DNA of 62,417 nt, the filler included, from Malassezia furfur (lineage: Eukaryota): the NCBI GenBank assembly GCA_052055015.1. It is 2 parts of 2 records of this genome, joined end to end, with 100 filler letters (N's around TTAATTAATTAA, not from the genome) between each part and the next. Parts side by side here need not be neighbours in the genome. Positions count along the whole stretch, not along the records: positions 31,479 to 62,417 come from JBQJIT010000095.1; 1 more part is not named here. One strand, given 5' to 3'. The notes under the pieces were generated by a model. The model was not told where the DNA came from. It worked only from the letters and a program-made list of their open reading frames with translations, and ran no database searches. Below are positions 55,882 to 59,467 of this stretch, one piece after another; the first letter of the stretch is position 1; each line of letters opens with the position of its first letter. The translations under genes and the position numbers were made by a program.

Positions 55882-57126
55882 GGGTGGTTGTAGTTGTACA
55901 TGTACGAGAGCCACCGTCCCGCCAACTTCGGGATCGTGTGTGGAAGGGAACAGCGGCAGCGGCGTGCCCTCTTCGGTGCCGGGCCACATTGGCGTGGGCA
56001 TCTCGACCTTTTTCCATCGCAGTTTTTCGGCCGTGAGCCGGTCCAAGAACGCCTCGTACGTCGCCGGGTTGCGTACGGTGCTCGCAACGAGTGCGTACGG
56101 AATGTTATCGTCCCACACGGGGTCGGTGGGGTACCGCGAAGCGTCTTCGGAGCCGGCCAGTGCCGTGCGCAACGCATCGACAAAGGGCACGATCAGTTCC
56201 GGGTCGTAGATCACGTCGGCCGCAAGCACGCGCGTGGCATTGGCGTTGCGCAACAGAGATGTCTCCTTGGTCCTGCGATAATATGCCTCAGCCCAGTCCA
56301 GCGGTGCGGTAAAGACGCCTCCCTGTACGCCATCTAGGTCAGTCACAGCGCACGTACTGAGATGTGCCGTCTCTTGCAAGCGCTCCAAGACGTTGCCGGC
56401 GATGTCGGTCAACAGAACCCGCGAGTCGGTCCCGCGCAGGATGCGCGCACACACCATGCCCAGGAACCCCGCGCCGCTGCCGAGCTCCACGACACTTTGA
56501 GCCTGCGACCGCCAAGATGCCTGCTCGGCGACGAGGTAGGCGGCAAGTCGGTAGCTCGCCTCCCAAGTTTTCAGACCGGTGGTCCCCTGCGAGATGGCCA
56601 CGCCCTCTTCGCGGAGCGTGACGCTGGCCGATGGCCCCAGCACGGGATCGTCGTCACCATCTGCACATGGGAAAAAGTGGCGCGAGTACATCGGCTGGGG
56701 CACCGGCGCACCGACGAGTCCCTCGTTGGCATCTTCGGCCGTGGGAAGTGAGACCAGCTCGACGTAGCGTTCCAGTATCCCCTCGTTCACTGCCCAGTCC
56801 TGTCTAGGCAATGGTATCGCGCGTTCTTCGTCGGGCGTCGCATCAGAGATGGCGTGCTCCGTGCGAGCGACAAGGTGCTTGAGAAACGCTCGTTCGTACT
56901 CGTCGTTTGCTCGGAAGGCCTTCGCTTGGCCGAAGAGCACCTCGTCTAGTCCCTCTTGTGCGGTGATGAGCCCGACGCGGTCGGGCCACGGAAACCGCTG
57001 TGCATTGGGCGGCAGCCGTGCTTCGTAGGCCACCCGCAGGGTGCGTTGCGCTTCCCGCTGCCGAGTCGTCATCCTGTGGAGGAGAAACGGGCGAATTTCA
57101 TCTAGCAGCGTGGAGGTTTCCTTCAT
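55864..57126 (-). CDS. eEF2 lysine methyltransferase (Efm3/FAM86-like)
   Basis: YERAFLK.LV (FAM86 domain), ISQGTTGLKTWEAS..LA, VVELGSGAGFLG, LLTD, LDW, LAADVIYDP, STVRN..T. Confidence 0.85.
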   Translation of the reverse strand: MKETSTLLDEIRPFLLHRMTTRQREAQRTLRVAYEARLPPNAQRFPWPDRVGLITAQEGLDEVLFGQAKAFRANDEYERAFLKHLVARTEHAISDATPDEERAIPLPRQDWAVNEGILERYVELVSLPTAEDANEGLVGAPVPQPMYSRHFFPCADGDDDPVLGPSASVTLREEGVAISQGTTGLKTWEASYRLAAYLVAEQASWRSQAQSVVELGSGAGFLGMVCARILRGTDSRVLLTDIAGNVLERLQETAHLSTCAVTDLDGVQGGVFTAPLDWAEAYYRRTKETSLLRNANATRVLAADVIYDPELIVPFVDALRTALAGSEDASRYPTDPVWDDNIPYALVASTVRNPATYEAFLDRLTAEKLRWKKVEMPTPMWPGTEEGTPLPLFPSTHDPEVGGTVALVHVQLQPPSPVVI

Positions 57127-59467
57127 GGGTGCGCGGCAGTCGAGCGAGGCGGCGGCGGCGGACGCCGACGTGTTCGTGGACTATTATGAGCTGCTCGAGG
57201 TAGACCAGAACGAGCCGGTGGAAGGAATCCGCAAGTCGTACCGTCGGCTTGCGCTGCGGTACCACCCTGACAAGAACCCCGGCAAGGAGGCGGAGGCGAA
57301 CAAGAAATTCACCAAGCTGCAGGAGGCGTACGAGGTGCTCTCGGATGAGACGGAGCGTGCGTGGTACGACCAGAACCGCGACCGGTTGATGCAAGGCACT
57401 GAGGAGGATGCCGAAGAAGACGTTGATGCCAAGTTTCGCTTCTTCCGCAGCGGCGGCGCGGCGCCTAAGGCGTCGTCCCTGGCGCCCGGCGTTGGCGTTG
57501 CGCACCTGCTCCGCTTCTACTCGCCGTCGATCGCCAAGGATTTGAGCGACACCGACTCGTCGTTCTTTGGCACTTACCGCCGCCTGTTTGCGCTGATCGC
57601 CGAGGAGGACCGCGTCGCGGCGCCGTACCCCGGCGAGGTGCACGAGAACGACTTTGCGGACCCCGATCGCGACGACGCGTACTGGTACGTTGGGTTCGGA
57701 CACCCCACGACGCCGTACATCGCAACCGATGGGCGCCGCGACGTGCGTTCCTTCTACCAGTTCTGGATGAACTTTTCGAGCCGCAAGAGTTTTGCGTGGA
57801 AGGACAAGTTCGACGTGCGCGAGGCACAGGACCGCCGTGTGAAGCGGCTCATGGAGAAGGACAACAAGCGCGCGCGTGACGCAGCGCGGCGCGAATACAA
57901 CGAGGCGATCCGCTCGCTGGCCGTGTTTATCCGCCGCCGCGATCCGCGGTACAAAGCGTACCAAGCGGCGCAGTCCGAAGCCACCAGCGCCGCCGCTACG
58001 GCCGAGGCTGAGAAGCGGCGCAAGGCCGAGGCGGCCAAGCGCCAGGAAGAGAAGCGGAAGCAGGCCGCCTCGTTCCAGGCGCAGAGCTGGCAGATGGCGC
58101 ACGAGCCCGAGGACGACTGGGCGTCGGACTTCACAAGCGGCGAGTCGTACGACAGCGACGATGCACATGCATCGAGTGCCGACGAGGACATGAGCGCCGA
58201 GGAAGCCGACGAGGACGAGGAGGCGTTTGACTGTGTCGCGTGCAACAAGCGCTTCCAGTCGCGCGCCGCGTGGGAGAACCACGAGCGGAGCAAGAAACAC
58301 AAGAAGGAGGTGCAGCGGCTTAAGCGCGAGATGCTCGCCGAGGACGAGCTGATTGGCGACGATCTCGCGGAAGATACCCAGGCGTTGTCGGTCGAGGATG
58401 TGTCCGTTGCGGCGGCGCCCGCCGAGGCACCCAAGAAGGACAAGAAGAGGAAGAAGCAGGAGAAGAAGATGCGTGCGGCGCTCGAGCAGCAAGATGGGCC
58501 GCCCTCCCGGGCCGCGCCGCCAGCGTCGCCCGCCGACCGTATGCACGCTGCGCTTCTCGAAAAGCTGCCGCATCTCGCGGCACTCCCGCAGTTCCCTGAA
58601 CGTCCGCCCGGGTCATTTGACGTGTTTGGCTACGGCTCGCTGATCTTTAAGCCGCCGCCCCATGCGATTGGATACACGCCTGGCTATATCCAAGGGTTTG
58701 CGCGGCGCTTTGCGCAGAACTCGATTGATCACCGCGGTACGCCGGAGCGTCCCGGACGCGTGGTGACGCTGGTCAAGTCGGAGGACTGGAAACAGCTGCC
58801 CGATGCAGACGAGGCGCCCGAGGGCGACATCGTGTGGGGCATCAGCTATACGATCGATGCGGCGCATGCGGACGAGGTGCGTGCGTACCTCGACGACCGC
58901 GAAAAGAATGGGTACACTGCGATGACTGCGCCGATCCTCGGCATCGCTGCGGACGTCGAGGAGACCGACTCGGAGCAGCCCGAGGTGCTCATCCCCGAGG
59001 CGCTGGTGTACGTCGGCTTGCCCGACAATGAGGCGTTCGTGGGTGCAGAGCCGCTCGATCAGCTCGCTGAGCGCATCTATACGTGCCAAGGGCCGAGCGG
59101 GCGCAATGACGAGTACTTGCTGCGGCTTGCCGAGGCCGTGCGTCTGTTGACACCGCACAGCAAGGACTACCATTTGTTTACGCTGGAAGAAAAGGTGCTT
59201 GCGCTGCGTGCGGCCGACGAGGCGCGTGCTGCGGCCGACGAGGCAGCGGCGGACGGAGCAGCGGCGGACGTCGCGGCGCCTGAGCCCGCCGCGCCCGAGA
59301 CAGCCAAGCCCAAGCGGCGCAGCAAAAAGGGCGGCGCCGGCGGCGGTGGCCCTGAAAAGTGCAACGTGTGCCATGCCGGCTTCCCCTCGCGGTCCAAGCT
59401 CTTTGCGCATGTCCGCGAGGCTGGGCATGCACAGGCGGCGCCGCAGCGCAAAGCTAAGCACAAGTAA
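57125..59467 (+). CDS. JJJ1: Jjj1/DNAJC21 J-protein with an inserted ChaC gamma-glutamylcyclotransferase domain
   Basis: MGARQS start, J domain with HPD (ERAWYD), zuotin-like region (FYQFW..F...K.F.WKD; RRRDPR), C2H2 finger CVACNKRF..NHERSKKH, ChaC domain at about 58616-59205, second finger CNVC..FPSRSKLF.HV...GHA. Confidence 0.9.
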   Translation: MGARQSSEAAAADADVFVDYYELLEVDQNEPVEGIRKSYRRLALRYHPDKNPGKEAEANKKFTKLQEAYEVLSDETERAWYDQNRDRLMQGTEEDAEEDVDAKFRFFRSGGAAPKASSLAPGVGVAHLLRFYSPSIAKDLSDTDSSFFGTYRRLFALIAEEDRVAAPYPGEVHENDFADPDRDDAYWYVGFGHPTTPYIATDGRRDVRSFYQFWMNFSSRKSFAWKDKFDVREAQDRRVKRLMEKDNKRARDAARREYNEAIRSLAVFIRRRDPRYKAYQAAQSEATSAAATAEAEKRRKAEAAKRQEEKRKQAASFQAQSWQMAHEPEDDWASDFTSGESYDSDDAHASSADEDMSAEEADEDEEAFDCVACNKRFQSRAAWENHERSKKHKKEVQRLKREMLAEDELIGDDLAEDTQALSVEDVSVAAAPAEAPKKDKKRKKQEKKMRAALEQQDGPPSRAAPPASPADRMHAALLEKLPHLAALPQFPERPPGSFDVFGYGSLIFKPPPHAIGYTPGYIQGFARRFAQNSIDHRGTPERPGRVVTLVKSEDWKQLPDADEAPEGDIVWGISYTIDAAHADEVRAYLDDREKNGYTAMTAPILGIAADVEETDSEQPEVLIPEALVYVGLPDNEAFVGAEPLDQLAERIYTCQGPSGRNDEYLLRLAEAVRLLTPHSKDYHLFTLEEKVLALRAADEARAAADEAAADGAAADVAAPEPAAPETAKPKRRSKKGGAGGGGPEKCNVCHAGFPSRSKLFAHVREAGHAQAAPQRKAKHK

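Follow-up and report, generated by a model that had tools for sequence, protein, structure and literature searches.

Two well-studied families are concerned here: the co-chaperone Jjj1/DNAJC21, which has its role in late 60S maturation, and ChaC/Gcg1, an enzyme of the cytosol that degrades glutathione. Yeast Jjj1 has a K/R-rich charged domain between two C2H2 fingers, through which the protein associates with polysomes and with Rei1, and which is not needed for growth, 40S/60S balance or the recycling of Arx1 (Albanese et al., 2010, PMC2854368, in excerpt). The conserved active-site residues of human ChaC2 are Tyr6, Gly7, Ser8, His39, Tyr87, Tyr109 and Tyr144, with Glu83 as catalytic residue and Glu74 as an alternative (Nguyen et al., 2019, PMC7022552, in excerpt). 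Here, we describe a gene of Malassezia furfur (assembly GCA_052055015.1), named Jjj1-ChaC in the following, in which a ChaC domain lies within a Jjj1 protein. The window, i.e., the whole stretch of DNA that was analyzed, is 62,417 nucleotides long and consists of two parts joined by 100 filler letters, the gene being located in the part from JBQJIT010000095.1 (positions 31,479 to 62,417). At a probability of roughly 0.85, we read it as a genuine bifunctional single gene, whose Jjj1 and ChaC parts would keep the ordinary, separate activities of their parent families.

Gene structure and domain order

An open reading frame (ORF) scan of the plus strand revealed 780 codons, open throughout, from an ATG at 57125 to a stop codon at 59465-59467, and the remaining two forward frames contained 12 and 20 stops across 57125-59467. 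GC content at third codon positions (GC3) ranged from 0.76 to 0.89 among the parts of the gene, both linkers included, with 0.76 for ChaC vs. 0.81 for the whole coding sequence. Coding-like GC3 in all parts, linkers too, is expected if the entire frame is translated. The nearest homologue among the matches listed was a protein of Malassezia furfur, also of 780 aa, with 93% identity over the full length. An unbroken 780-aa ORF, with the order J domain, zuotin-homology domain (ZHD), finger, ChaC and second finger, had been claimed in an earlier note on this DNA; the frame was recovered as described, and Pfam returned the same order (DnaJ, ZHD, C2H2, ChaC and a weak C2H2). The finger coordinates given there were exact, 58226-58300 and 59360-59428 corresponding to residues 368-392 and 746-768. 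The features of the gene are as follows:

57125..59467, plus strand: Jjj1-ChaC coding sequence, single exon, 780 aa plus stop
57179..57370, plus strand: J domain, residues 19-82 (Pfam PF00226, E 3.9e-24)
57263-57271, plus strand: HPD motif, residues 47-49, inside the J domain
57734..57955, plus strand: zuotin-homology domain, residues 204-277 (Pfam PF21884, ZUO1-like ZHD, E 4.6e-13)
58226..58303, plus strand: C2H2 finger 1, residues 368-393 (Pfam zf-met and zf-C2H2_jaz, E 2e-9)
58433..58468, plus strand: basic patch 1, residues 437-448, KKDKKRKKQEKK, in the inter-finger linker, upstream flank of the insertion
58622..59200, plus strand: ChaC (gamma-glutamylcyclotransferase) domain, residues 500-692 (Pfam PF04752, E 3.5e-52)
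58631-58639, plus strand: YGS motif, residues 503-505, ChaC active site
58901-58903, plus strand: predicted catalytic Glu593, the Glu of 'REK', from alignment with human ChaC2
59306..59329, plus strand: basic patch 2, residues 728-735, KPKRRSKK, downstream flank of the insertion, immediately before finger 2
59357..59428, plus strand: C2H2 finger 2, the C-terminal finger of Jjj1, residues 745-768 (weak Pfam match; alignment with Schizophyllum Jjj1)

Both flanks of the ChaC domain aligned with the non-fused Jjj1 of Schizophyllum commune: residues 1-411 with its residues 1-358 (42% identity, E 2e-89), and residues 730-772 with its finger 2, residues 492-539 (48% identity, E 3e-10). By these alignments, ChaC is a true domain insertion in Jjj1, and no read-through of adjoining genes, because Jjj1 sequence flanks it on both sides, which is what the earlier note had argued. 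When the region from finger 1 to the C-terminus was aligned for five fused and six non-fused proteins, two basic patches were found to be common to fused and non-fused Jjj1, one after finger 1 and the other directly before finger 2, and ChaC occupied the low-complexity spacer between them. Since the inter-finger charged domain is dispensable in yeast, the insertion would lie in the part of Jjj1 that best tolerates change.

The Jjj1 part contained what characterizes Jjj1/DNAJC21, namely a J domain with HPD, a ZHD and two C2H2 fingers around a K/R-rich region, here interrupted by ChaC. Among 62 fused homologues, HPD was present in 60, the remaining 2 having no aligned N-terminal region, and the Cys and His ligands of finger 1 were present in all (62/62). 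The ZHD region also matched the Zuo1-type chains 7z3n_C and 7x3k_A. Within basic patch 1, K438 and K440 were invariant and K437, K441 and K444 were each found in at least 90% of 42 sequences. Finger 2 gave a weak Pfam C2H2 match (residues 745-765, E 1.4e-4, under Pfam's cutoff), and its first Cys was found in 51/62 fused homologues. As judged from these domains and motifs, the Jjj1/DNAJC21 part is complete.

The protein starts with MGARQSS (residues 1-7, window 57125-57145), which we take to fit the N-myristoylation consensus (PROSITE pattern). A start of the MGxxxS type was found in 52/62 fused and 48/52 non-fused basidiomycete Jjj1 proteins, and the proteins without it look like alternative choices of start codon.

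Active site of the ChaC domain

The ChaC match was near full-length, covering positions 3-174 of the 176 in the PF04752 profile with 177 bits vs. a cutoff of 21, and all the ChaC motifs quoted in the earlier note were found in the protein. PF04752 is a family of glutathione-specific gamma-glutamylcyclotransferases with the GGCT fold, and in sequence the domain matched two members of solved structure, human ChaC2 (6k95) with E 3.3e-36 and yeast Gcg1 (5hwk) with E 2.4e-34. Residues were mapped from ChaC2 to the window by counting by hand along the pairwise alignment, which placed the ChaC2 active-site set at Y503, G504, S505, H536, Y597, Y629, Y664, E593 and E584, with YGSL corresponding to Y503-G504-S505-L506. 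The Glu of REK, which had been thought to be intact, is indeed the residue that aligns with Glu83 of ChaC2, the position altered in the E83Q entry 6ky1. G504, S505, H536, E593, Y597, Y629 and Y664 were each present in 62/62 fused homologues, and position 503 was Tyr in 53 and Phe in 9. From this set of residues, the domain looks like a complete, catalytically equipped enzyme, predicted to cleave glutathione.

Distribution of the fused architecture

A search with the whole protein returned 167 proteins at E <= 0.001; the statements on matches in this paragraph concern the best 120 of these, which were listed. DnaJ, ZHD, finger and ChaC occurred together in about 60 clusters. Named fused proteins came from Malassezia (furfur, obtusa, psittaci, equina, vespertilionis, caprae, nana, and cuniculi), from Ustilago, Sporisorium, Pseudozyma, Kalmanozyma, Melanopsichium, Testicularia, Thecaphora and Violaceomyces, and from Tilletiaria, Tilletia, Jaminaea, Parajaminaea and Microstroma; Sympodiomycopsis has one also. 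Every DnaJ+ChaC protein with a named source belonged to the Ustilaginomycotina, which comprise Malassezia, the smut fungi and yeasts related to them. The named Agaricomycotina matches, and one match from Sporobolomyces, were Jjj1 proteins of 500-680 residues without ChaC, and the best non-fused matches were named DnaJ subfamily C member 21 or JJJ1-related. In a profile scan of 42 chosen fused proteins, all (42/42) scored for ChaC, DnaJ, ZHD and the first finger type.

The ChaC part was also searched against shorter proteins only, and the best 120 of 4039 matches were listed. Among these 120, the short proteins were stand-alone ChaCs of Agaricomycotina, with 52-60% identity, the sole Ustilaginomycotina-like ones being Exobasidiales-type proteins and duplicates of the M. 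sympodialis group; none of them was a short copy closely related to the sequence of the window itself. Likewise, tblastn with the protein found no second ChaC-like stretch in the whole 62-kb window. Taken together, the fused state was found in all sampled Ustilaginomycotina orders but Exobasidiales, and the gene is, on this distribution, a typical member of an old family that spans the subphylum.

The same distribution bears on whether misassembly, or a frame open by chance in GC-rich DNA, has joined two genes into one. The DNA has about 65% GC and does contain long spurious ORFs, of which the 491-aa antisense ORF described below is an example. On the other side stand the Jjj1 sequence on either side of ChaC, the same order in independently assembled genomes of many genera, and the equal length (780 aa) of the closest homologue. 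A misassembly or chance ORF was ruled out on the double Jjj1 flank and the architecture shared across many genera, and the chance that the gene is an artefact is, in our estimate, negligible.

The novelty that the earlier note saw in this architecture was thus upheld only in part: it is subphylum-wide and already in databases (about 60 clusters listed), and no paper characterizing it was found. The database names of the fused proteins are automatic ('Related to JJJ1', 'ChaC-domain-containing protein'). No study of a Jjj1-ChaC fusion was found in the literature searched, subscription journals lying outside it, and one supplementary text file of the M. sympodialis proteogenomics paper (PMC5389616) contained no JJJ1 or GCG1 entry. 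The architecture itself appears to be unstudied.

Conservation and origin of the ChaC insert

Over 62 fused proteins, the mean consensus frequency of the ChaC segments was 0.76-0.87, the same as that of the J domain and ZHD, except for a variable acidic loop at residues 601-620 (0.28) and the end of the domain at residues 681-700 (0.59), and the linkers had values of 0.03-0.44. Identity to a Tilletia homologue was 61% for ChaC and 57% for the J domain, vs. 22% for the upstream and 10% for the downstream linker. On this conservation, the fused ChaC is a domain held under purifying selection since its insertion.

A quick maximum-likelihood tree, unrooted and made with a short search, was built from 128 ChaC domains, namely those of 64 fused proteins, 6 duplicates and 58 of 116 stand-alone proteins (every second one), after three fused rows with short matches had been dropped. 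One branch, with a support of 96 in the Shimodaira-Hasegawa-like approximate likelihood ratio test (SH-aLRT), separated 53 Agaricomycotina stand-alone ChaCs from the 64 fused domains, the 6 duplicates and 5 short proteins. Given this split, the pattern fits a single origin, in which the ChaC gene resident in the lineage was captured. A recent horizontal origin of ChaC was also considered and found to be without evidence, the GC3 being 0.76 vs. 0.81 and the nearest non-fused relatives in the tree being basidiomycete ChaCs.

Lineages with separate or duplicated modules

The non-fused Jjj1 proteins nearest the fused family formed a clade of their own (SH-aLRT 99), with Exobasidium rhododendri and Meira miltonrushii as named relatives. 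The stand-alone ChaCs clustering with the fused domains included a partial model from Acaromyces ingoldii, and three complete proteins of 221-229 residues with a Met immediately before FGYGSL. Acaromyces, Meira and Exobasidium all belong to Exobasidiales (Wang et al., 2015, PMC4777779, in excerpt), and the two genes are therefore separate in this order.

In a Jjj1 gene tree rooted on Agaricomycotina, the non-fused Exobasidiales-type Jjj1 nested within the fused group (SH-aLRT 94). A second Jjj1 tree, in which a single outgroup row was left after a motif filter had removed 18, gave supports of 83 and 76, and the approximately unbiased test did not reject one clade of all fused proteins (p 0.449). 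The gene trees are compatible both with fission in Exobasidiales and with their early branching. Phylogenomic work groups Exobasidiales with fusion-bearing orders, which would imply fission. The deep branching order of Ustilaginomycotina lineages is left unresolved in the relevant part of Wang et al. (PMC4777779).

The M. sympodialis group has extra ChaC-only proteins, nested within the Malassezia fused clade of the ChaC tree. The one from M. sympodialis is 294 residues long, goes by the name 'similar to GCG1' and has a finger 2 tail reduced to a degenerate relic. The copies of M. equina and M. caprae, with 635 and 604 residues, extend into a C-terminal part, which in M. equina gave weak alpha/beta-hydrolase Pfam matches under the cutoff. 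Judging from locus-tag numbers, these two copies are six or seven genes away from the parent, and in M. equina the copy and its parent have identical ChaC domains. With the genes apart in Exobasidiales and these ChaC-only partial duplicates in the M. sympodialis group, the Jjj1 and ChaC modules are, as far as gene content tells, separable.

The duplicates start about 25 residues upstream of ChaC, so that such a unit can stand alone, and the linker immediately upstream of ChaC in the window contains Met449 and Met473. One locus could then give two proteins, an internal promoter, start or processing freeing ChaC (with finger 2) and the full-length product, of roughly 86 kDa, being minor. In all fused homologues, the frame nonetheless stays open across the two linkers in spite of their poor conservation, and linker GC3 is coding-like, which makes a two-protein locus quite improbable.

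Neighboring genes

The genes adjoining Jjj1-ChaC, and the antisense ORF, are as follows:

55864-57126, minus strand: divergent 420-aa ORF of the lysine-methyltransferase family PF10294, sharing a CATG palindrome (57124-57127) with the Jjj1-ChaC ATG
57098-58573, minus strand: 491-aa antisense ORF, Arg/Leu/Gly-rich, inside the Jjj1-ChaC coding sequence
59477-60997, minus strand: convergent 506-aa pentatricopeptide-repeat (PPR) gene, ending 9 bases past the Jjj1-ChaC stop codon

If Jjj1-ChaC and its PF10294 neighbor both use their first ATG, there is no intergenic DNA between them; use of a second Met, 18 codons into the neighbor, would leave about 50 bp. On the other side, the 9-base gap between convergent genes means that the 3' ends of Jjj1-ChaC and the PPR gene must overlap or abut. 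The antisense ORF was taken for a by-product of the 65% GC composition.

Possible function of the fusion

By analogy with yeast Jjj1, the J domain would recruit a cytosolic Ssa-type Hsp70, the ZHD would bind 60S particles, and the two fingers with the basic linker would bind Rei1 and polysomes. ChaC, going by its family, would cleave glutathione into 5-oxoproline and Cys-Gly. The insertion probably occurred early in Ustilaginomycotina, a resident ChaC gene being captured at a change-tolerant site of Jjj1, and in effect ChaC would be produced together with a ribosome-associated co-chaperone and kept attached to it.

Three findings weigh against a bifunctional gene with both parts in their ordinary roles. 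E584, the equivalent of Glu74 of ChaC2, was retained in just 39/62 fused homologues; finger 2 was absent from 5/5 Tilletia fused proteins and from several partial models; and the separate genes of Exobasidiales imply that the fusion is unneeded for either function. As an observation apart, the five Tilletia proteins without finger 2 retain a lysine-rich C-terminal tail.

ChaC1 of mammals reportedly acts on the Notch protein. The fusion as such may also have a function, in that tethered ChaC would put glutathione breakdown at ribosomes, serving cysteine supply or local redox in maturation or translation; in a variant, the substrate of ChaC would be a gamma-glutamyl group on a protein bound to ribosomes or chaperones. 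Consistent with this, the fusion is retained in every sampled order bar Exobasidiales, ChaC is among the best-conserved parts, and the insert lies within the region that in yeast mediates Rei1 and polysome binding (PMC2854368, in excerpt). However, the genes are separate in Exobasidiales, ChaC-only duplicates occur in the M. sympodialis group, conserved surfaces or motifs peculiar to the fusion were not found outside those of the two parent families, and the linkers around ChaC are the least conserved parts of the protein. We therefore see a functional fusion as unlikely, and more doubtful still is that ribosome-tethered ChaC would be a working part of the Jjj1 machine, which, through glutathione degradation or the removal of a gamma-glutamyl group from a protein at cytosolic pre-60S particles or polysomes, would link ribosome maturation or early translation to cysteine supply or thiol redox state. 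No other eukaryote is known to have such a link in a single polypeptide. The coupling of Hsp70 or ribosome maturation to glutathione turnover, proposed in the earlier note, is weakened by the lineages that have the modules apart.

A stable natural fusion, retained across a subphylum to which Ustilago, Tilletia and Sporisorium belong as well as the skin yeast Malassezia, offers a ready test of a link between glutathione and ribosome biogenesis, with natural controls in Exobasidiales (genes apart) and the M. sympodialis group (an extra ChaC-only copy). For annotation, either name, 'JJJ1-related' or 'gamma-glutamylcyclotransferase', conceals half of the protein. Should these genomes contain no ChaC other than the fused gene, deletion of 'JJJ1' would also remove a glutathione-degrading enzyme and confound phenotypes.

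Comparison with known systems

With Zuo1, the J-protein of the ribosome-associated complex, Jjj1-ChaC shares the J domain and ZHD; Zuo1 is assumed here to have no ChaC domain. The charged C-terminal domain of Zuo1 is not described as having the flanking fingers of Jjj1 (PMC2854368, in excerpt). With S. cerevisiae Jjj1 and human DNAJC21, Jjj1-ChaC has in common the HPD-bearing J domain, the ZHD and two C2H2 fingers around a basic or charged linker; unlike them, it holds a ChaC enzyme of roughly 200 residues within the inter-finger linker and has an N-terminal MGxxxS extension, which is common to non-fused basidiomycete Jjj1.

The ChaC part has the YGS motif, the His, three Tyr and the catalytic Glu of S. 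cerevisiae Gcg1 (5hwi, 5hwk) and human ChaC2 (6k95). Whereas these are stand-alone proteins of 180-240 residues, the ChaC of the window is embedded in a larger protein and has the variable acidic loop. The closest relatives of each half are the Jjj1 and ChaC of Exobasidiales (Acaromyces, Exobasidium and Meira): their Jjj1 has the same two basic patches and finger 2 motif, and their ChaC clusters with the fused domains, the difference being that the modules are carried by separate genes.

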